Shown here: positions 7,487 through 29,021 of the stretch, piece after piece | Numbering within the stretch: position 1 is the stretch's first letter | Layout: the number at the start of each line of letters is the position of its first letter | DNA from: an uncultured Candidatus Saccharimonadales bacterium | GTDB taxonomy: Bacteria > Patescibacteriota > Saccharimonadia > UBA4664 | Direction: 5' to 3' | Assembly (NCBI GenBank): GCA_964467655.1 | Contig: CAYXSN010000004.1 | Location: forward strand, 19,906-83,905 | DNA: 64,000 bases | Made by a program: the position numbers and the translations under genes | Notes under the pieces: generated by a model | Seen by the model: only the letters and a program-made list of their open reading frames with translations | Told to the model about the DNA's origin: nothing | The model's database searches: none

Positions 7487-10400
7487 TTATAACCGCACAA
7501 TCCGCCGAGCTGGTTTGCTTGCACGAGGCGATGCGCCGCCCTGGCTCTTCGGCCGGGTGCCGCCGCTCCCCCGTCGTCGGCGCCAGTGTCGCCAACCTGT
7601 CATGCCCAAGTAGCCCAGACACCCGGCGAGGGTGAGGCCGCTGATGATGAGACCAACATAAAACCAACGCTGCGGTGTAAACTCGGCCACCAGCTCCAGA
7701 TCGTAGGTGCCGTCGGGATTGGCGTGGCAGAGGTTTTGTTGTTTGCAGAGCTTGTCGACGTCGATGTACCAACCGTTGGCAAAGTCGTTGAGCTTGAAGT
7801 GGTCGCTATCGGCGATGGCGTCGGGTTTGGCCCAGGGGACCCAGCTGTTGATGCCCTGAACTTTGCCGTTATTGATTTCGAGGCGCCATTTCGAAAAGTA
7901 GTTTTGGTTCATGGCTAGATAAAATGGCTTTTCTGCCGACTTGACGCTGATACTATGCTTTACCGGACTAGCCGTGTGATGCTCTACCGATTTTGGCATC
8001 GAGGTAATGGTGGGACTATCAGATAACAGAACGTATTTGCCCGTGATGTTTGGCAGCCGGTCTAGCTTCATATCGCTGTATTCAACAACATTTACTTTGC
8101 CTGATTGGGGCTCATAGGCATACAAATATATCGTTGCGCTTGTGGCGCCAGCAGGTGCTTTGAACTTGATTGATGCCTGCGTACTCCCGCCGCTCTGTTC
8201 TGACCCTTTTAACCGATCCGACAGGTATGTTCCGGCCGGGTCATTGAAGCCAATATAGTAGCCAGCCGCAGTGTCACTTGAGGGCTTGTACTCAAAGTCG
8301 AGCATGTAGTCTCCCGAATCGACGACACTTACGTTTGTATTGGCACAGGCAATGTGATTGCGCGACGTGAGCTTAACCAACGAGCCGGGTCCGCGTTTGT
8401 CGACTACCAGACTAATGTCTGAGCGCTCGTCGGACGCACTACAATCGACTACCTTTTGGGGCCAATCATTCAGGTATCGCCTTTCGAAATTATTGGGAGT
8501 TCCGACATATTCAGCATTACTGACTTGTGTGTTGCCTATCGCCTTTTTAACCACCTGGTCGGCAGCGATGAGCTTGACTGCTTGGCTCTCGATAACTTCA
8601 TATACCGAAACATTGGCATAGCGCGCCACATTTGTCTTATCGATATCAGTCCCAGAAAACGCATACAAGAAGAAGTTCGAAGCATCGACATTTGCTGGGG
8701 TGGTCACGATCTTAGAGTAACGGTGCCATGAGTCATCGGCGGTGTTGGTCGACCAGCTACTATTTATCTCGCTGCCTTTACCCGCATAGATGGCATACCC
8801 GATCTTGGAGTGACTTGGACTGGCATAGTCAAAACTGATCAGGTATTGTTTGCCGCTTTGCAACGTAACGCCAGTGCGAGTACATGCAATGTGTCCCTTG
8901 GCGACTAATTCCAGTGCCTTCGTGGCTTGCTTGGCGTCCTTATCGAGGAGCCGCATGCTCAACTCTGCCCGCGAGCTTTCAATGGCACAGTCTTCCACTT
9001 TGGGTTGCCAGAGGCCCCTACTGAAATCGCCGTTTTGTATCATATTTTCATCACGTGCCGAGATTACTTTTGCCGTTGTCGCTCCTTGGCGGTTGGCAAT
9101 CTCGACGGGATTATCTGAGCTGATCGGCGTATAGCTGTTGTTGGCTTCAACGAAGTAGCGTCTCTGTGGGCGCCGCTCGATTGATGTGGTTTCGTATTTC
9201 TGCTGATCTTGCCTAAAAGGTGTGGTGCCATCGAGGGTTAGCAGGCCTTCATCATGGGCAGAGATGGTGATTCTTGTAGCATCGCTCACGGCGCGGATGA
9301 CAGGAGCGCTGGCAGTCTTGTACAGCGTGGCCGGCTGACTGTCGGTGGCAACCACCGGCTGGTCGTGAATTCTACCTGAAATCGGATCGATATTGGCGGT
9401 GGTTACGTTTGCAAATAGTGGCTCAATATGAGCTGTTGGCATCTTTACGTTATCGGTCGTGTAGTAATAATTTGGCTTGGCCAAGGTTGCTGTCACAAAT
9501 TCATTGACTGCTTTAAAATTATTGCGTCCCGTAAAGCTATACAGATTGTCGGTAACTGAAATGAATTCCTTGGGTTGTGGGTCGATCAGTTCATAGACCG
9601 CCAGATTGGGCGTGTCCATCTTTTGCTTGAAATGGCCGGATTTTTGGATGCCGTTTTGGAGATCATGAATGCTCAAGGGCGATTTACCGTAGGCATGCGC
9701 CCAATCGTAGTTACTGTCCTTGCGCACCACAACGTATTTGATATTACGTCTGGCGAGGTTGGCCGTCTGGACGTCTGTAGCAGTAAAATCGGCTTCAACG
9801 TCGTAATTGAACTTATCAATGGTGGCACCGCCGATATCAGTTGAAATGATGGACGTGCCCGATAGTAGCCTCAAGATGTCGTTGCCAATATAACCTTCTT
9901 TTCCATCGCCCCACTTACTCGATATCCAGGCTGTGTGTTGCAGCGGCAAGGACAGGGTTAGGGCATGAGCATCGGCCTTGAGAAAATCCGCTACTTGATA
10001 GTAGTCTTGTGGTATTGCTATCTGGGCGGCTGGTCTAATGCCATTGTTTGAATTAAAGATCTGGCCGGTCCAAACAGGGAATCCCAGCACCATAATGATG
10101 AGCGCTGCAACCGAGCGATACCATAACGCCTTGGCGCTACTTACCCTCAGTGGGATCGAAAAAGCCAAGAATAAGGTTAGTAGGTAGCCGAGGGCAACAA
10201 TAATGCCGAGTTTTTCGTAGGCCGCCCGGAACGCCAAAAATGGTACCGGAAATGTCTGGAATAGGAATACAAAGAAGCCGCCGAAGGGTTCGTGCGAGCC
10301 TTTGGCTAGGAAACTACCAACCAATACCATAGCTACTGCCAGTATGACCAGCCGCCAAGCTTTGCGGAGGATGTTTTGGTTGAGTAGTACAACAATAAGA

Positions 10401-11389
10401 GCAAGCGGAAAAATAAACGTTAATATCTTGAATGGTGATGCAATGAATAAATCCGCCCAGGGAAACCAGCGGCCGCCAATTTTGTCGGATAGACTGTAAT
10501 AGCCGTTGAGCGTTAGGACATTTAAGAACGAGGCGTTACTACTAATGACATTGAGTATTGAGAACGAGCCATCCAGGTTTCCGCCGCCCGTGGATTTGGC
10601 TGTGCTATCGGCAACATTGAAGAATTGCGGCAGCAAATACCACAGATTTGTAGATATCCAGACCACAATACCTGTTGCCATGAGGAGTGCGAATCGCCGC
10701 AGCGGCATATCAACTAACGCCAACAGCGATACGCCACCGAGAATGCCGATCATGATAAAGAGGAATGATAAATTCGTGAGCGCTACAGATACAAACCCGG
10801 CCGTTACAAACGATAGTGCGATTACATACGCAATCCGTCCAGTATCAAGGAATTTCAACTGAAGCCAGATGAGCAATGGCAGAGCCGCATAAAAAATGTA
10901 CAGAAATATGATCATCCGCCAGCCATTGATCGCAATGTACAAATTCGACATGTAAAACAGTGCTGGTACGGTTAGCGCCCATGTATTCCTGGTGAGGCTG
11001 TATTTGGTTTGCAGATATTCCAGCAGTACAATGGCACTCCAACCTGTTACTACGAGGACTCCAAAAAAGAATAGTGCCTGCGACGCCACAGCGTTCAAGC
11101 CAACCAATTGAAATATCCCGATGAGCACAAAGAGCGGCACAATGGCATAACCGGTGGCATCGATAATGCCGCCACTATATTGAGGCTTCCAACCAAACGA
11201 AAAGTTGTGGGCATGCTCTAAAGGATTGCCAATAGACCACGTACTATCGGCATAAAACAGTAGCCGCCCGCTTGAGTACCACATACCGATCGTTATCAGT
11301 GCTGCTAACGCGACAATGGCGTATGGCAGCCATCGCTGATTATTGAGCCACTTATGCATGCGCGCCCCCAAGTTGTTCAATAACTTCAC
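7487..11389 (-). CDS. giant membrane glycosyltransferase-like protein: N-terminal multi-TM GT-C-like domain, large extracytoplasmic carbohydrate-binding-like domain, C-terminal TM anchor. Architecture resembles arabinofuranosyltransferase AftD (DUF3367)
   Basis: 1300 aa with about 12-14 N-terminal TM helices and a C-terminal TM plus Arg-rich tail. It sits in an operon with GT2/GT2/GT4 genes. The family assignment is inferred from architecture. Confidence 0.5.
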   Translation of the reverse strand: MKLLNNLGARMHKWLNNQRWLPYAIVALAALITIGMWYSSGRLLFYADSTWSIGNPLEHAHNFSFGWKPQYSGGIIDATGYAIVPLFVLIGIFQLVGLNAVASQALFFFGVLVVTGWSAIVLLEYLQTKYSLTRNTWALTVPALFYMSNLYIAINGWRMIIFLYIFYAALPLLIWLQLKFLDTGRIAYVIALSFVTAGFVSVALTNLSFLFIMIGILGGVSLLALVDMPLRRFALLMATGIVVWISTNLWYLLPQFFNVADSTAKSTGGGNLDGSFSILNVISSNASFLNVLTLNGYYSLSDKIGGRWFPWADLFIASPFKILTFIFPLALIVVLLNQNILRKAWRLVILAVAMVLVGSFLAKGSHEPFGGFFVFLFQTFPVPFLAFRAAYEKLGIIVALGYLLTLFLAFSIPLRVSSAKALWYRSVAALIIMVLGFPVWTGQIFNSNNGIRPAAQIAIPQDYYQVADFLKADAHALTLSLPLQHTAWISSKWGDGKEGYIGNDILRLLSGTSIISTDIGGATIDKFNYDVEADFTATDVQTANLARRNIKYVVVRKDSNYDWAHAYGKSPLSIHDLQNGIQKSGHFKQKMDTPNLAVYELIDPQPKEFISVTDNLYSFTGRNNFKAVNEFVTATLAKPNYYYTTDNVKMPTAHIEPLFANVTTANIDPISGRIHDQPVVATDSQPATLYKTASAPVIRAVSDATRITISAHDEGLLTLDGTTPFRQDQQKYETTSIERRPQRRYFVEANNSYTPISSDNPVEIANRQGATTAKVISARDENMIQNGDFSRGLWQPKVEDCAIESSRAELSMRLLDKDAKQATKALELVAKGHIACTRTGVTLQSGKQYLISFDYASPSHSKIGYAIYAGKGSEINSSWSTNTADDSWHRYSKIVTTPANVDASNFFLYAFSGTDIDKTNVARYANVSVYEVIESQAVKLIAADQVVKKAIGNTQVSNAEYVGTPNNFERRYLNDWPQKVVDCSASDERSDISLVVDKRGPGSLVKLTSRNHIACANTNVSVVDSGDYMLDFEYKPSSDTAAGYYIGFNDPAGTYLSDRLKGSEQSGGSTQASIKFKAPAGATSATIYLYAYEPQSGKVNVVEYSDMKLDRLPNITGKYVLLSDSPTITSMPKSVEHHTASPVKHSISVKSAEKPFYLAMNQNYFSKWRLEINNGKVQGINSWVPWAKPDAIADSDHFKLNDFANGWYIDVDKLCKQQNLCHANPDGTYDLELVAEFTPQRWFYVGLIISGLTLAGCLGYLGMTGWRHWRRRRGSGGTRPKSQGGASPRASKPARRIVRL

Positions 11390-12464
11390 TCAAGGCACGG
11401 GCTTGTTGCCGTACATCGAAATATTTGTTTGTGCGTTTGGCATTGTTCGCCTGGACCGATGCCAGATGTCGAGGCTCGCTCAGCAAGCTCTCAACGGCGG
11501 CGATGACGGCTTTTGAATCGTTTTGAGCGACCACAATATTGTCTGCGCCCACGATTTCAGGTAAGGCTCCCGCATCGGTGGTGATTACTGCCAAACCGCA
11601 CGCCATAGCCTCGACGAAGCTAAAACCAAACTGTTCTGAGGTGATCTTGAGTTTGTACTTGTACATGTCGCGGCAGGGCATGACGAGGATGCCGTGCTGC
11701 TGGAGTACGCTTGGCAATTGCTCATTTGGTAGCGGCCCAAGATATGAAAATTGTGGGTATTTATCGACATAGCTTTTGATTGTATCTGCATACGGGCCCT
11801 TGCCGATGACGGTCATTTTGATATCTGGATTCTTCGGCAATACGGCATCGGCAACTTCGAGGAAGATATCGATGCCTTTGTGAGGCTTAAGACCGCCAAC
11901 AAAAATGAGATTTCGATTGGTTTGTGAGTGTTTGACACTTTGAAAAAGATGCAGGTCTATGCCCGGATACACTACCTTCGCCTTATCTGGAGGTGCGCCC
12001 AGAGCCAGTACACAATCGCGAGCTTTGTTTGATACGCACACAAATAGATCGGCGTGTTTGATGACATAGAGCCGATTGCCTATGTGTGAGGGTAGATAGT
12101 GTAGTGGATGGCGCGGTATGAGCTCGTATACCAGTACCACGACCTTTTTGCCGTGCTTGTGAGCATACTCGGTGAACTGTTTGGCTATGGATGAAAAAAC
12201 TTCGAGGACAATGATAACATCGACATCTGCGAGGTACCGTTCGAAGCCAGTATAGGTTACCAATTTGGCAGTTGAATGGTACTTACCAGCGAATAGGCGG
12301 CTTTCCTGGCTCTGTACCTGGCAGTATTCGACATTGTCGGGCTTTGTGGTGGGGTAGGATGCAAAGTCGATATCGAGAAACTTGATTTTCTCAACCGGCA
12401 TGCGCGAAAACCAGTGGTACTCGTAGTTGGGACGACTATCGTGTGAGACGTAAGCGATTTTCAT
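11352..12464 (-). CDS. glycosyltransferase family 4 (GT4)
   Basis: 370 aa with GT4 motifs (GGLKPHKGID; EQFGFSFVEAMACGLAVITTDAGALPE = E-x7-E). Translationally coupled with its neighbours. Confidence 0.8.
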   Translation of the reverse strand: MKIAYVSHDSRPNYEYHWFSRMPVEKIKFLDIDFASYPTTKPDNVEYCQVQSQESRLFAGKYHSTAKLVTYTGFERYLADVDVIIVLEVFSSIAKQFTEYAHKHGKKVVVLVYELIPRHPLHYLPSHIGNRLYVIKHADLFVCVSNKARDCVLALGAPPDKAKVVYPGIDLHLFQSVKHSQTNRNLIFVGGLKPHKGIDIFLEVADAVLPKNPDIKMTVIGKGPYADTIKSYVDKYPQFSYLGPLPNEQLPSVLQQHGILVMPCRDMYKYKLKITSEQFGFSFVEAMACGLAVITTDAGALPEIVGADNIVVAQNDSKAVIAAVESLLSEPRHLASVQANNAKRTNKYFDVRQQARALSEVIEQLGGAHA

Positions 12465-13306
12465 TTCCGATGAGCCTTACCTGACCGCTTTAATACTTCC
12501 GGTTCGCCGCGGAGCATGCCGGTGGCTCCGGCCAGATACTTTACAAACATGTAGTACCAAAACGCCGTGAAGAGCTTGGGTTGTTTGATGAGGTCTTTTT
12601 GGAGTTGGATGAATTGGGGTCGGAAGAAGTTGAATTGTTTGACACTGCGAACGCCGGCTTTTTGGTTGTATTTGCCTATGGTTCGGCCGTAATAGTGGAA
12701 CTTACGCCAGACATCGCCGATGGTTTTGGGCTCGCCGATGTGGGTTTCCACAGCGTCAACGTGAGCCCATTTGTAGCCAGCGTCCACCATACGGTTGTGT
12801 AGATCGAAATCCTCACCGGCCACGAGTGTTTCATCGAAGCCACCTAAGGCATCAAAGACCGAGCGCTTGAAGAAGCGGGCCCCCACGATGGAAGTGTCGT
12901 TTTTGTAGGTTTCACGTTCCAGGTAGCGTACATGAGCCCAGATACTGTCGCCCTGGGAACGGTTATGTACCGCAAGTGCATCATAGCCTTCGGCCATTTT
13001 GGCGACACATTTGGCGACCACATCGGGCTCAAGTACAAATTCGAGGCCGATCCGGTACATGTACTCCCCTGTGGCTTTGGTGACGCCATAGTTGAACTGA
13101 GTTGAGCGCTCGGGTCCGAGCTGGTAGAACTGGTCGGCATATTGTTTGACAATATCTGGTGTGCCGTCAGTCGAAAAGTTGTCTACGACGATTAACTCAA
13201 TGTGCGGGTACGTTTGCGCTTTGACGCTCTGGAGGCTGGCGTGCGCGGCTGGAGCGTTGTTTTTGCAGGCTATAACAATTGAGACTAATGGTTGTTTGGC
13301 TGCCAT
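12461..13306 (-). CDS. glycosyltransferase family 2 (GT2)
   Basis: Start chosen at ATG 13306 (MAAKQPLVSIVIACKN). GT2 signature IELIVVDNFSTDGT and GEDFDLHNR. Paralog of the upstream GT2. Confidence 0.75.
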   Translation of the reverse strand: MAAKQPLVSIVIACKNNAPAAHASLQSVKAQTYPHIELIVVDNFSTDGTPDIVKQYADQFYQLGPERSTQFNYGVTKATGEYMYRIGLEFVLEPDVVAKCVAKMAEGYDALAVHNRSQGDSIWAHVRYLERETYKNDTSIVGARFFKRSVFDALGGFDETLVAGEDFDLHNRMVDAGYKWAHVDAVETHIGEPKTIGDVWRKFHYYGRTIGKYNQKAGVRSVKQFNFFRPQFIQLQKDLIKQPKLFTAFWYYMFVKYLAGATGMLRGEPEVLKRSGKAHRK

Positions 13307-14124
13307 TTGTTCCCTCGAAATTTGGCCAGCACAAAGCCGGCTCCCCCGAAGCTGAATTTGAGTAGCAGATACCCAGCTAACTGCAGGCTCTTGACCGGAT
13401 TTTGCATGAGGCGTTTGCCACGACAATGTGCGAATGCCATCAAGTATTTGAGCTGCCCATTGAACTCGCCGGGATTGGCTTTTTGGTATCGCACCGAGTC
13501 TTTGCCGTAGTGATACATTTTTACCAGATGCGGCCAGAGCTTTGTGGGCTCACCCAAGTGCAGGGCCTCGGCGTCGATGAAGGCGGTCTTGTAGCCGGCT
13601 TTGTTGAGCTTGTTTTGAAAGTCGTAATCTTCGCCGGCGGTAATGGCTTCGTTGAAGCCGCCAATGGCCTGATAGACAGATTTCTTGATGAAACGGGCCG
13701 AGGAGTGCTGAAGGTCGTATTTGTACATGTCGACCTCAAACTTTCTGATGCGGGCAATCCAGCTAATGCTGGGATCGGGTGAGTTGTGTACCACCACAGC
13801 GTCGGCGCCCTCAGTGGCCCGCCTGATGCATTGATCGATGACGGCGGGATCGAGCACGAAATCGGCATCCACTTTGTAGACATACTCGCCTGTGGCTTTG
13901 GTGACACCAAAGTTTACTTGGGCCGAGCGCTCCGGCCCGTGGTTGTACACGTGCTGAGTGTAGCGCTGGGCGATGGTTTTGGTGGTGTCGGTGGAATCGC
14001 GGTCGACCACAATGATTTCGATGGGTTTGTACGTTTGATCGGCGATTGATTTGAGGCAGGCCTCAATTGTGGCGGCGCTATTGCGAGTGGGAATGATGAC
14101 TGAGACAAGCTGGTTACTGGGCAT
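13285..14124 (-). CDS. glycosyltransferase family 2 (GT2)
   Basis: 279 aa with VSVIIPTRNS...IEIIVVDRDSTDTT and GEDYDFQNK. First gene of the GT2-GT2-GT4-AftD-like operon. Confidence 0.8.
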   Translation of the reverse strand: MPSNQLVSVIIPTRNSAATIEACLKSIADQTYKPIEIIVVDRDSTDTTKTIAQRYTQHVYNHGPERSAQVNFGVTKATGEYVYKVDADFVLDPAVIDQCIRRATEGADAVVVHNSPDPSISWIARIRKFEVDMYKYDLQHSSARFIKKSVYQAIGGFNEAITAGEDYDFQNKLNKAGYKTAFIDAEALHLGEPTKLWPHLVKMYHYGKDSVRYQKANPGEFNGQLKYLMAFAHCRGKRLMQNPVKSLQLAGYLLLKFSFGGAGFVLAKFRGNKWQPNNH

Positions 14125-26505: not shown

Positions 26506-26580
26506 GGTCCCATCGTCTAGCGGTTAGGACAACGGATTTTCATTCCGTCAACCGGGGTTCGACTCCCCGTGGGACTACCA
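26506..26580 (+). tRNA. tRNA-Glu(TTC): tRNA-Glu (anticodon TTC)
   Basis: 75-nt cloverleaf read directly. Acceptor stem GGTCCCA/TGGGACT, anticodon loop TTTTCAT with TTC, T-arm GGGGTTCGACTCCCC, 3' CCA encoded. It begins with GTCCCATCGTCTAGCGGTTAGGAC, typical of tRNA-Glu. Confidence 0.9.
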
Positions 26581-27358: not shown

Positions 27359-28699
27359 CTAGCGGATTTGCTGACTGAGCAGCTCGGGCCATTCCCGGGG
27401 AATGAATGGTTTGTTCGACCCGGAGCTGGCGATTTCTCGCACCGCTTGGTCAAGCTTGACCGATCCACCCAGAGCTTCTTGCTCGCCAATAACAATGGCG
27501 TACGGCACGAGGTCTTCGCGGGCTTGCCTTACCTTTTTACCAACACTGTCGTTACGGTCGTCAATCTCGAGACGCACTGGCTGGCCGGCCAATTTGGCGC
27601 CGAGCTGCCGACACAGATCAACGTACTTGTCACTAACTGGAACGAGCCTGATATGGACGGGATATAGCCAAAGCGGTAGACCATCTGGGAATCGATCGAG
27701 CGCTGCGTACAGGTAACGTTCGATACCACCCGGAATGGCCGAGTGGATGATCACGGGATGACGACTATCGCCCTGCTCATCCACGTACTGGATACCCAAA
27801 CGTGGCGCGTTGCCAACATCAATCTGGATACACGCAATTTCACGCGACTGGCCAAGGGCGTCCATAATCTTGTAATCGACATTGATGATCCAGTAGCGAT
27901 CGGCGCCGTCGTTGATGATACCAGCCAGCACGTCGCGGCCAAGGCTAGCGGCCACCTTTGCGATTTCATCCCGGTATTGTTCCCAGTATTCGGGTGACGA
28001 TACCTCGATACAAACTTCGTAGTCACGGTTCAGTTCTCGACCGCTGGCCAGGATTTGTTCCTGTAGTTTAGGAAACCACTTAAAAGCCTGGGCAACGTCG
28101 CGGAAATACGGGTGAATGTCTGGCATATAAAATCGGCGCTGGCGATACAGCAACATGCATTCGCCGCTTTGCTCAGCGCGGTAGCAGTCGGACAGTGAAA
28201 AGTGCGCAAACGGCAGGTTCTTATAGTTTAGACCATGCTGCTTCGCCAGATTGAACTGCGGGTAGCTCGCGTCGTAGCTCATAACCAGCTGGTTGTTGCC
28301 CGATTTGAACTGATACAGCCGGTCGCCATACAAATGGGCGTAGGCCGCCACGACTGGATGGTCAAGGTTGAATAGGTTTGAACCATTTACTTCATACATG
28401 GGCAAGCCAACAGCGCTCACCAGCTGTCGAGCATAATCTTGAACGAGCCGGCGCATGAGGTTGGCTTTATAGTCGTACTGGACAATACCAATGTCGGCGT
28501 TGGGTTCCCACCCAAAGCCAAGCTTCTTAGCAATCGCTAGATAGGCGGGTTTGCCCTCGGAACCGCGATTGACACCAGCCCGCTGGGCTTCGCGCAGGAC
28601 GAATAATCTAAAACTATCTGAACCTGCGCCTGATTCCAAATAGGCCTCGGCCGAGTTGACCCGGCCATCAGGTCTAATTACGTAATATTGATCTTTCAT
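27359..28699 (-). CDS. class II aminoacyl-tRNA synthetase paralog. It is ThrRS-like (catalytic core plus anticodon-binding domain) and lacks the N-terminal TGS/editing domains
   Basis: 446 aa. Motif-2-like FSLSDCYRAEQSGECMLLYRQRRFYMPDIH. Motif-3-like PVIIHSAIPGGIERYLYAAL (compare ThrRS PVMIHRAILGSMERFIGIL). C-terminal class-IIa anticodon-binding pattern PYAIVIGEQE. Confidence 0.6.
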   Translation of the reverse strand: MKDQYYVIRPDGRVNSAEAYLESGAGSDSFRLFVLREAQRAGVNRGSEGKPAYLAIAKKLGFGWEPNADIGIVQYDYKANLMRRLVQDYARQLVSAVGLPMYEVNGSNLFNLDHPVVAAYAHLYGDRLYQFKSGNNQLVMSYDASYPQFNLAKQHGLNYKNLPFAHFSLSDCYRAEQSGECMLLYRQRRFYMPDIHPYFRDVAQAFKWFPKLQEQILASGRELNRDYEVCIEVSSPEYWEQYRDEIAKVAASLGRDVLAGIINDGADRYWIINVDYKIMDALGQSREIACIQIDVGNAPRLGIQYVDEQGDSRHPVIIHSAIPGGIERYLYAALDRFPDGLPLWLYPVHIRLVPVSDKYVDLCRQLGAKLAGQPVRLEIDDRNDSVGKKVRQAREDLVPYAIVIGEQEALGGSVKLDQAVREIASSGSNKPFIPREWPELLSQQIR

Positions 28700-28769
28700 T
28701 GCAATACTCCATTTAGAATTGGTTGACTCTAGGTGCCGCTCTAAATGAAGTTTTGGGCCGAGATACCAA

Positions 28770-28800
28770 AAACTCCCGCTGCCGGGAGATTTTTAAGCAA
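28770..28800 (-). promoter_or_regulatory. intrinsic terminator hairpin (ctcccggcagcgggag plus T-run) inside the 5' leader of the ThrRS-like gene. Candidate attenuator
   Basis: A predicted promoter TTGACC-N17-TATAAT (plus-strand ggtcaa 28902..28907, attata 28879..28884) lies upstream of this hairpin. The hairpin is therefore about 75 nt 5' of the ATG inside a roughly 170-nt leader. Confidence 0.45.
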
Positions 28801-29021
28801 TCGCAAACTACCGACAGGCTAGAACGTAGCTGTCGCTGTCTCGTTGATAACGATGTAGTTTGATTGAATCATGTTCTAATTATAACACGCTTGTGGTTGA
28901 TGGTCAATTTTTACCAGTTTCGGTTACTAGCTGGTAATACCCTCAGGCGGCTTTACCTGGAACGAGCGATACCAAACCGCCAGCCCATCTCTGATACGGT
29001 TCCAATTCGCGATATGGTAGT

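Follow-up and report, generated by a model that had tools for sequence, protein, structure and literature searches.

A probable auxiliary threonyl-tRNA synthetase-like gene of Saccharibacteria with a predicted threonine-codon attenuator in its leader

The DNA considered here is a stretch of 64,000 nucleotides (the window) from an uncultured Candidatus Saccharimonadales bacterium. It contains a gene, here named thrS-2, that encodes a threonyl-tRNA synthetase-like (ThrRS-like) protein of 446 amino acids. The locus is probably an auxiliary ThrRS gene gated by a ribosome-mediated attenuator, which would sense the supply of Thr-tRNA(Thr) and form, together with the gene, a single-gene module. The initial annotation of this DNA had reported the 446-aa open reading frame (ORF), which is present as described, and had suggested attenuation-type control. 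That suggestion is now strongly supported and can be specified as attenuation through a leader peptide with threonine codons. The interval considered in the initial annotation ends at position 28800 and so omits the promoter and the 17-codon leader ORF, the key element.

Evidence for the attenuator is provided by comparing related loci. Among 185,579 species representatives, with one genome per species, 38 further loci with a thrS-2 gene were recovered, giving 39 together with the window. They belong to Saccharibacteria, to Dojkabacteria and to a few evidently mis-binned contigs, and they include the complete 1.45-Mb genome CP025011.1. The search relied on two invariant peptide patterns and is therefore not an exhaustive census. 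For each of the 39 loci, the 330 nt upstream of the gene were compared. Gene and leader are kept across two classes of the candidate phyla radiation (CPR), and the leader is the only thing that travels with thrS-2.

Every one of the 39 loci has a small ORF with a run of Thr codons 166-204 nt upstream of the gene, and every one has an intrinsic terminator between this ORF and the gene. Counted from the ATG closest to the -10 box, the leader ORFs are 13-22 codons long. At least three Thr residues (up to five) fall within five codons in 36 of the 39 leaders; among 3604 small ORFs taken from this DNA as controls, the proportion is 4%. The N-terminal half of the peptide drifts, and the Thr run usually lies a few codons before the C-terminal end. 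Examples are MIKSINPNQVTTTTVSS at locus L009, a peptide ending in ITTTTTAVF at L011, and one ending in KTTTQTTRV at L040, which comes from Dojkabacteria. In 25 of the 39 loci, the last Thr codon and the stop codon have three codons between them. With this typical spacing, the geometry of the leader fits the trp paradigm. When 640 kb were scanned on both strands for a small ORF rich in one amino acid and followed by a terminator, the module upstream of thrS-2 was returned in 35 loci. The same scan gave four further Thr-rich matches, all of which overlap annotated ORFs.

The position of the promoter suggests how the leader is translated. A consensus scan agrees with the initial annotation on both the promoter, TTGACC-N17-TATAAT (28907..28879), and an intrinsic terminator hairpin within the leader. 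In most of the 39 loci a -35-like TTGnnn lies 16-18 nt upstream of the -10 box, which carries a TGn extension in 30. The gap between the -10 box and the ATG can be scored in 37 loci: it is 6 nt in 14 of them, 7 in 13, 8-9 in nine and 5 in one. A Shine-Dalgarno-like motif was found upstream of the leader ATG in none of the 39 loci. Because the -10 box sits 5-9 nt before the ATG, the leader transcript is probably leaderless, with its start at or next to the ATG.

From the leader ORF onwards, the RNA can be divided into segments that pair in alternative ways (Table 1). The hairpin CTCCCG-GCAG-CGGGAG with its TTTTT tract (28788-28768) is the only strong terminator-like site between the promoter and the start codon of thrS-2. 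Segment 1 reads CGACAG in the window and CGACGGU in most relatives. Segment 2 reads CUGUCGG or ACCGUCGGG, and the pairing strand of segment 3 reads CCGGCAG or CCCGACGG. Segment 2 begins close to the stop codon, a few nucleotides away at most, in the majority of loci; it lies inside the ORF in a few divergent ones, such as L025.

Support for these helices comes from compensatory changes. Pairs were counted on a MAFFT alignment (A2) that was built without structural input, and each helix was mapped from a reference sequence, since RNAalifold, run on the full leader alignment, recovered the terminator only, because of gaps and competing structures. The antiterminator, helix 2:3, is 87.6% paired, with six of its eight pairs compensatory. 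It shows 28 double-sided changes against 10.5±3.8 after shuffling (0/500 shuffles reach the count), and its register-shift controls are 40-56% paired. The terminator, helix 3:4, is 92.3% paired, with compensatory changes at seven of nine pairs and 18 double-sided changes against 3.3±1.6 shuffled (0/500); its controls reach at most 70%. For helix 1:2, pairing is 79.4% and 24 double-sided changes compare with 12.5±3.0 shuffled (0/500), while controls slid along the alignment are paired at 50% or less. Across all five helices, the controls span 14-70% paired.

The two remaining helices connect the terminator to the ribosome binding site of the gene. Helix 4:5 joins segment 4 (GGAGUUUU..GUU) to segment 5 (AAC..AAAACUCC). 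It is 86.3% paired, eight of its eleven pairs are compensatory, and one of 500 shuffles reaches the observed count. Helix 5:6 joins segment 5 to the Shine-Dalgarno-bearing segment 6 (AACUCCAUU / AAUGGAGUU); it is 71.3% paired and has 21 double-sided changes against 11.7.

A three-way covariation ties the Thr codons to the switch itself. The third base of a Thr codon, position +3 of segment 2 and position 3 of the terminator loop change together. They are ACA, U and A (loop GCAG) in the clade of the window, and ACG, C and G (loop GCGG or ACGG) in the main clade. A single nucleotide in segment 2 thus varies in step with each of the two partners it can pair with. Complementarity also exists between the linker that separates segments 2 and 3 and the 5' half of the leader ORF, and the sequences involved differ among clades (mean z of -2.1; z below -2 in 19 of the 39 loci). 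The untranslated leader would therefore be one long hairpin.

Modelling of the window leader gives a fold better than all 200 of 200 dinucleotide shuffles (z = -3.6), and its minimum free energy (MFE) fold is the OFF state. Consecutive helices share nucleotides, so two registers are available. In one, helices 1:2, 3:4 and 5:6 form together, transcription is terminated and the Shine-Dalgarno sequence is masked. In the other, helices 2:3 and 4:5 form, which would allow readthrough and leave the Shine-Dalgarno sequence free.

From this arrangement a mechanism can be proposed in which ribosome stalling would be the signal. Transcription would begin at the AUG of the 17-codon leader ORF, or 1-2 nt before it. 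A translating ribosome would then reach the three Thr codons (3-5 in relatives), which are themselves RNA segment 1. If charged tRNA(Thr) is plentiful, the ribosome would proceed to the stop codon and cover segment 2, the 3:4 terminator would form, and transcription would end at the U-tract. If no ribosome is present, helix 1:2 would form and likewise leave 3:4 to terminate. If charged tRNA(Thr) is scarce, the ribosome would stall on the Thr codons and cover segment 1, leaving segment 2 free to pair with segment 3. Formation of 2:3 would block the terminator, and RNA polymerase would read into thrS-2.

A further step is less certain. Once freed from segment 3, segment 4 could pair with segment 5 and so expose the Shine-Dalgarno sequence in segment 6, coupling antitermination to the unmasking of translation. 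The chances that such a relay through 4:5 and 5:6 operates are put at about even.

The induced enzyme would recharge tRNA(Thr) when the housekeeping ThrRS falls short. As candidate triggers, an auxotrophic epibiont might run short of threonine, the bacterial-type ThrRS might be blocked by an inhibitor, or metal might be limiting. Clearance of any Ser-tRNA(Thr) that the enzyme produces would depend on a factor acting in trans, such as the editing domain of the canonical ThrRS.

Table 1. Predicted elements of the thrS-2 locus, the nearby tRNA gene, and protein positions that distinguish the thrS-2 family (nucleotide coordinates refer to the window; the last four rows give residue numbers).
Feature	Position	Strand	Remarks
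-35 hexamer TTGACC	28902..28907	minus	promoter matches the consensus at 11 of 12 positions; 17-nt spacer
Extended -10 TGtTATAAT	28879..28887	minus	TATAAT at 28884-28879; ends 6 nt before the leader ATG
Leader ORF MIQSNYIVINETATATF	28819..28872	minus	17 codons and a TAG stop
Outer arm CAAACTAC	28855..28862	minus	5' half of the leader ORF; pairs with 28804-28811
Thr-codon block ACA GCG ACA GCT ACG	28825..28839	minus	holds segment 1 (CGACAG, 28835-28830)
Segment 2 CTGTCGG	28811..28817	minus	starts 2 nt past the leader stop; pairs with segment 1 or 3
Linker arm GTAGTTTG	28804..28811	minus	partner of 28855-28862
Segment 3 CTCCCG and loop GCAG	28779..28788	minus	5' arm of the terminator; CCGGCAG pairs with segment 2 as antiterminator
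Segment 4 CGGGAG and U-tract TTTTT(GG)	28766..28778	minus	3' arm of the terminator
Segment 5 CCCAAAACTTCATTTAGA	28740..28757	minus	5' part pairs with segment 4, 3' part (anti-Shine-Dalgarno) with segment 6
Segment 6 TCTAAATGGAG	28707..28717	minus	holds the thrS Shine-Dalgarno GGAG (28710-28707), sequestered in the MFE fold
thrS-2 gene	27359..28699	minus	446-aa ThrRS-like protein: archaeal-genre catalytic core and anticodon-binding domain, editing domain absent
tRNA-Glu(UUC)	26506-26580	plus	780 nt downstream of thrS-2, past a YCII-family gene
Residue 141	141		Ser in the thrS-2 family, Arg in archaeal-type ThrRS
Residue 143	143		Asp in the thrS-2 family, Ala in archaeal-type ThrRS
Residue 172	172		Cys in the thrS-2 family, Ser in archaeal-type ThrRS
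Residue 290	290		Cys in the thrS-2 family, Thr in archaeal-type ThrRS; aligned with E. coli T482

The product of the gene can be classified from its domains and relatives. Pfam finds tRNA-synt_2b (PF00587) at residues 136-336 with 57.6 bits and HGTP_anticodon (PF03129) at residues 350-416 with 46.4 bits. Beyond these two domains the Pfam scan of the 446-aa protein returned nothing, and thus no TGS (PF02824), tRNA_SAD (PF07973) or PF08915; the two domains and the lack of TGS and tRNA_SAD had been anticipated by the initial annotation. The best curated model is NF003068, the archaeal ThrRS equivalog (380.4 bits), whose match begins at profile position 153, directly past the archaeal editing domain. 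An AlphaFold (AF2) model with a pLDDT of 79 superposes on the catalytic and anticodon-binding domains of ThrRS over about 405 columns, with TM scores of 0.72-0.82 (Foldseek).

Outside the thrS-2 family, the closest full-length relatives are 613-645 aa long and 36-40% identical, in an exhaustive search of 1.84 billion cluster representatives. Among those that were checked, P0123 is the one exception, with a SAD domain; the others have PF08915, the editing domain specific to archaea. A 447-aa match falls in the cluster of the 633-aa ThrRS of Nanoarchaeum equitans. With bacterial ThrRS structures, the window protein shares 19-28% identity. Judged by these matches, the window protein is an archaeal-genre ThrRS core without any editing domain. 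The initial annotation had described it as a truncated ThrRS. It is indeed shorter than a full-length enzyme, but it is not a truncated bacterial one, given 380 bits for NF003068 against 231 for TIGR00418 and relatives with PF08915.

The exception P0123 and a second protein, P0281 (645 and 651 aa, from Logan contigs), are rare chimeras in which a bacterial tRNA_SAD module at the N terminus is joined to an archaeal-genre core. Their core is 40% identical to the window protein, and all other relatives of that core bear PF08915. P0123 was considered as a stand-in for the canonical Saccharibacterial ThrRS and dropped, as its relatives are all archaeal and give no help on co-occurrence.

Within the family itself, a protein identical to that of the window occurs on six metagenomic contigs, the longest of 85.9 kb. 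The best 120 of more than 120 clusters are 55-78% identical, and nearly all are 441-455 aa long, apart from one of 470 aa and one truncated at 365 aa. Homologues that carry a taxonomic name come from Candidatus Saccharimonadia or Patescibacteria, some of them on contigs of up to 1.18 Mb. The family is under strong purifying selection.

Several observations weigh against this account of the locus. In the clade of the window the Thr run is T-A-T-A-T, so that Ala codons separate the only three Thr codons. One of the aligned sequences was the source from which the helices were initially identified, and the shuffle control ignores phylogeny. With the footprint of a ribosome imposed, equilibrium folding of the window leader still favours the terminator; therefore the switch would have to be kinetic, as in the trp leader. 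Withholding segment 3 raises the unpaired probability of the Shine-Dalgarno sequence from 0.34 to 0.46 across the family (partition function, Wilcoxon p = 0.009), a modest gain, and does not raise it in the window sequence, where 5:6 is a 13-bp helix. On the side of the protein, the NF003068 score lies below the cut-off of 484 and the TIGR00418 score (230.8) below that of 383.65. The Cys that binds zinc in canonical enzymes (E. coli Cys334) is Ser145 in 120 of 120 family members, within the motif MSYDAS, whereas 110 of 110 archaeal-type ThrRS have Cys, within LRYAAC. Because the zinc Cys is replaced and both curated cut-offs are missed, the protein is called ThrRS-like. It very probably acts as a ThrRS, and it is not called a verified equivalog.

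One alternative is that the 446-aa protein is the sole housekeeping ThrRS of its host. The canonical gene would have been displaced, and the attenuator would tune the level of the enzyme, as for pheST in E. coli. In agreement with this, tblastn found no second ThrRS in the window or in the 38 flanks, which represent about 1% of each genome. The strong purifying selection, the chromosome-sized contigs and the names given to the family by JGI and UniRef (threonyl-tRNA synthetase) are also what a housekeeping gene would show; the NCBI pipeline names its members 'aminoacyl-tRNA ligase-related' or 'hypothetical'.

However, the one complete genome of a relative that was checked has both types of ThrRS. 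This genome, YM_S32_TM7_50_20, has a published gene table (Starr et al. 2018; PMC6031116, supplement 2). Its gene _630 (579451-580785, minus strand, 445 codons, K01868 with the flag 'check_length') is the family member of locus L020, as the start coordinates coincide exactly, and its product is 58% identical to the window protein. The table also lists gene _1392 (1309182-1310972), a 597-aa protein assigned to K01868 as a 'reliable' ThrRS. In this genome, the one inspected, thrS-2 coexists with a canonical ThrRS, and it is for this genome only that the initial annotation's term 'paralog' is borne out, by the 445-codon and 597-aa genes. In Southlakia epibionticum, a Saccharibacterium in culture, the essential ThrRS (SEML1_0128) is 603 aa long and carries SAD, and no gene of thrS-2 length is present. 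Because of this absence and the coexistence in YM_S32_TM7_50_20, the thrS-2 family is accessory within the phylum. It is found in 38 of 185,579 species representatives and in none of the cultured Saccharibacteria, in which the canonical ThrRS is essential. Moreover, a strong terminator and a sequestered Shine-Dalgarno sequence would be a tight OFF state for an essential gene. A housekeeping role is therefore unlikely.

Some further observations concern the synthetases and genomes of this group. In the table of PMC6031116, a third 'K01868/thrS' row follows gene _1392, and its gene was not located. The AlaRS of YM_S32_TM7_50_20 has just 630 aa and is flagged 'check_length'. The tblastn search of the flanks also returned an archaeal/eukaryotic-type ProRS of 476 aa (L024:2465-3895, minus strand) a few kilobases from thrS-2, and a weak class-IIa-like match at the cut end of L016 (132-707). 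These matches hint at several archaeal-genre class IIa synthetases in these Saccharibacteria. Loci L017 and L029 (CAZBQZ010000004.1 and CAZBQZ010000011.1) belong to one metagenome-assembled genome and each carry a thrS-2 with its own Thr leader (...ALTTTTTLLS and ...VKTTTTTLLS), either as two copies in a genome or as a mixed bin. Four loci have labels from other groups, namely L028 (DATKWK010000035.1, a 394-kb contig labelled Bathyarchaeia), L037 (Bdellovibrionales), L014 (Chitinophaga) and L042 (Peribacteria). All four have thrS-2 with a bacterial-style promoter, a Thr leader and a terminator, and they are probably mis-binned CPR contigs.

Alternatively, the protein may have lost the ability to charge tRNA(Thr), as a pseudo-synthetase or as a paralog with a new function, either for another hydroxy-amino acid or as a regulator. 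The replacement of the zinc Cys in 120 of 120 members, the new invariant residues C172, C290, D143 and S141, and the scores below the equivalog cut-offs would be expected in this case. The zinc of ThrRS is described as universally present and essential (PMC4787780). Against such a loss, the catalytic residues are preserved in all 120 members: R174 and E176 of motif 2, R328 of motif 3, and D194, which aligns with the Asp that contacts the hydroxyl of threonine. The motif-3 string quoted in the initial annotation, HPVIIHSAIPGGIERYLYAAL, is present. Of the three canonical zinc ligands (C334, H385 and H511 in E. coli), two, H196 and H319, are likewise kept in 120 of 120, and the anticodon-binding domain is retained as well. 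C172, C290 or D143 could possibly serve as a substitute zinc ligand. The gene is, in addition, specifically controlled by a predicted Thr-codon sensor, and a loss of tRNA(Thr) charging is improbable. Zinc is needed to reject valine, and the editing domain is absent, so the replacement of its Cys ligand raises the question of how specificity is kept.

The leader could also respond to another signal: a small molecule, uncharged tRNA in the manner of a T-box, or operator binding by the ThrRS itself, as for thrS of E. coli. The small ORF would then be incidental. Two conserved motifs are left unexplained by the ribosome model. One is TCTCGG, in the loop of the U-tract hairpin (28758-28763, minus strand; A2 columns ~175-180). 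The other is AGRGCGR...CAGAG, in the loop of the hairpin that sequesters the Shine-Dalgarno sequence (~28722-28742, minus strand; A2 209-231), and this hairpin could be a protein operator. Both motifs are conserved beyond the needs of pairing and may be a contact site for a protein or a tRNA. On the sense strand of the leader, Rfam gave no match to a T-box, a known leader family or any other family even at E<=10, in line with the initial annotation, which had seen no T-box motif. The only sub-threshold Rfam match, Phe_leader, lies on the wrong strand and was discarded. An incidental ORF is hard to reconcile with its conservation, since the ORF, its ATG and the Thr run are kept in 39 of 39 loci and the stop stays near segment 2 in most, while the rest of the peptide drifts. 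The Thr codons, moreover, change synonymously together with their pairing partners. A sensor other than the translating ribosome is very improbable.

The surroundings of thrS-2 bear on the last alternative. Within 10 kb on either side are genes for glycosyltransferases, a polysaccharide flippase, an MFS protein, a His-kinase/response regulator pair, methyltransferases and a YCII-family protein, and no integrase or transposase. The tRNA-Glu(UUC) gene is the sole tRNA or Rfam match in the window at the gathering threshold, and no att-like duplicate of its 3' end occurs within the window. GC content is uneven along the entire window, with no specific deviation at thrS-2. No neighbour in the window is kept even in relatives that are 73-78% identical, and no gene family recurs beside thrS-2 in the 39 loci; the idea of a partner gene in an operon, or of a trans-editing factor encoded next to thrS-2, was therefore rejected. 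Nor does a free-standing ThrRS-ed gene (PF08915) occur in the 39 flanks, which extend up to 6 kb on each side.

That thrS-2 is cargo of a mobile island, with a role in self-resistance or, through amino-acid ligase activity, in secondary metabolism, was the proposal of the initial annotation and is highly improbable: although a stand-alone synthetase paralog with a patchy distribution, without conserved synteny, 780 nt from a tRNA gene and altered at positions that line the inhibitor pocket of bacterial ThrRS would suit it, there is no integrase or transposase within 10 kb, no att-like repeat in the window, and neither an adjacent biosynthetic gene nor a conserved partner gene in the 39 loci, and the retained anticodon-binding domain and a putative Thr-tRNA-sensing leader conserved in two CPR classes tie the product to the charging of tRNA(Thr).

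Resistance to an external ThrRS inhibitor is possible. Being of archaeal genre, the window protein differs from bacterial ThrRS and has W for E. coli Y462, N for K465, N for L489 and S/Y for C334/P335. Obafluorin-related PDB entries of E. coli ThrS carry mutations at G463 and L489. From these positions we infer that the active-site differences could affect sensitivity to inhibitors. This raises the question of whether the enzyme is insensitive to borrelidin and obafluorin, ThrRS inhibitors made by the kinds of bacteria that Saccharibacteria live on.

Elsewhere in the window, a region at 7487-14124 (minus strand) has a lower GC content (48-50%, compared with 55-60% nearby). It encodes a 1300-aa protein with a weak match to a carbohydrate-binding domain, followed by three glycosyltransferases, and is probably a variable cell-surface glycan locus.

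A second element of the same kind was seen at one locus. At L026:2590-2770, a small ORF, MQEAAKNRFSSSSSSSSK, contains eight consecutive Ser codons and starts with an ATG that is 8 nt from the TACTAT -10 box upstream. Next comes a hairpin with CTTTTTG, and the 5' arm of this hairpin overlaps the last Ser codons. A gene for a 425-aa SerRS (L026:2770-4047) lies 135 nt downstream of the small ORF. This single example looks like a Ser-sensing leader-peptide attenuator.

With an auxiliary ThrRS gene under a leader-peptide attenuator as the preferred account of thrS-2, a broader proposal can be made, which is speculative and rather doubtful. Patescibacteria might regulate aminoacyl-tRNA synthetase genes by leaderless leader-peptide attenuators of a class not yet described, with the Ser version at serS seen at one locus. 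In it, thrS-2 would represent a six-segment relay, where one stalled ribosome would at once block termination and expose the Shine-Dalgarno sequence downstream, and its enzyme, which lacks the Cys-His-His site, would be a metal- or inhibitor-proof emergency synthetase for epibionts that live on antibiotic-producing Actinobacteria.

Gene regulation in CPR bacteria (Patescibacteria) is almost unknown, and only a small number of structured cis-regulatory RNAs are attributed to this group. No literature was found on ThrRS editing or on leader peptides in Saccharibacteria. The element described here is comparatively well supported, with five covarying helices in 39 loci, and it is directly testable. 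If the mechanism is confirmed, it would show that ultra-small epibionts monitor the charging of tRNA by a classical ribosome-coupled mechanism. It would also show that leaderless mRNAs are probably translated in these organisms, and that a ThrRS of archaeal origin is held in reserve.

The closest parallels in architecture are the trpL, thrL and pheM-pheST leaders of E. coli. In these leaders too, a short ORF rich in cognate codons precedes an intrinsic terminator, the RNA can form helices 1:2, 2:3 or 3:4, and the stop codon is so placed that a ribosome which does not stall masks segment 2. The pheST operon shows that leader-peptide attenuation is used for an aminoacyl-tRNA synthetase gene. Compared with these leaders, that of thrS-2 is apparently leaderless, without a Shine-Dalgarno sequence and with the -10 box 6-7 nt upstream of the ATG in most loci (27 of 37). 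It also differs in that the Thr codons themselves are segment 1, that two extra covarying helices reach the Shine-Dalgarno sequence of the gene, and that the host belongs to the CPR.

The proposed unmasking of the Shine-Dalgarno sequence resembles ermC and ermK, in which a stall in the leader ORF re-pairs downstream segments; in thrS-2 this would expose the Shine-Dalgarno sequence of the regulated gene. In ermK, transcriptional and translational attenuation are combined. In ermC and ermK, unlike thrS-2, the stalling signal is an antibiotic-bound ribosome and not a shortage of aminoacyl-tRNA.

Second synthetase genes induced by failing charging are also known. In Bacillus subtilis, the second ThrRS gene is normally silent, and antitermination induces it when the charging of tRNA(Thr) drops. 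Unlike thrS-2, it is controlled by a T-box RNA that binds uncharged tRNA, and ThrZ is a full-length bacterial ThrRS. The two genes of B. subtilis are thrS and thrZ (Putzer et al. 1992, as cited in PMC4787780, ref 56).

Streptomyces coelicolor has an auxiliary, indolmycin-resistant TrpRS, trpRS1, that is controlled by ribosome-mediated attenuation (Vecchione & Sello 2010, as cited in PMC4787780, ref 57). Like the thrS-2 of the proposed mechanism, trpRS1 is a second synthetase gene beside a housekeeping one, switched on through a leader peptide with cognate codons when charging fails. Unlike thrS-2, it encodes a class I TrpRS of an actinobacterium with demonstrated antibiotic resistance; thrS-2 encodes a class II archaeal-genre ThrRS, and its trigger is putative. 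In Streptomyces lividans, leaderless leader peptides occur upstream of thrS, leuS, trpS and alaS (PMC8079986). Like the leader predicted for thrS-2, thrL is a small ORF that contains Thr codons, is leaderless and precedes a thrS gene, but its peptide has only two Thr, the authors found no clear terminator, the gene encodes a canonical ThrRS, and no comparative support is given (PMC8079986).

Enzymes without editing are known among ThrRS as well. T2 of Anabaena is a stress-induced, editing-defective second ThrRS, and the Ser-tRNA(Thr) that it makes is cleared in trans by T1 (PMC4787780). Unlike thrS-2, T2 is under Zur/zinc control and keeps its zinc ligands (PMC4787780); the thrS-2 protein has no editing domain, its Cys ligand is replaced, and control would be by attenuation. 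The crenarchaeal ThrRS-cat, such as ThrRS-1 of Aeropyrum pernix (PDB 3A31), is archaeal-genre and without a cis-editing domain, like the thrS-2 protein. The A. pernix enzyme is only distantly related (E 1.4e-10 to the thrS-2 family profile). Unlike thrS-2 in the proposed account, this enzyme is the only ThrRS with synthetic activity, and a ThrRS-ed protein is dedicated to it as partner. Each ingredient of the thrS-2 locus thus has precedents; new are the way they are combined, the occurrence in CPR bacteria, the proposed relay of five helices and the replacement of the canonical zinc Cys.

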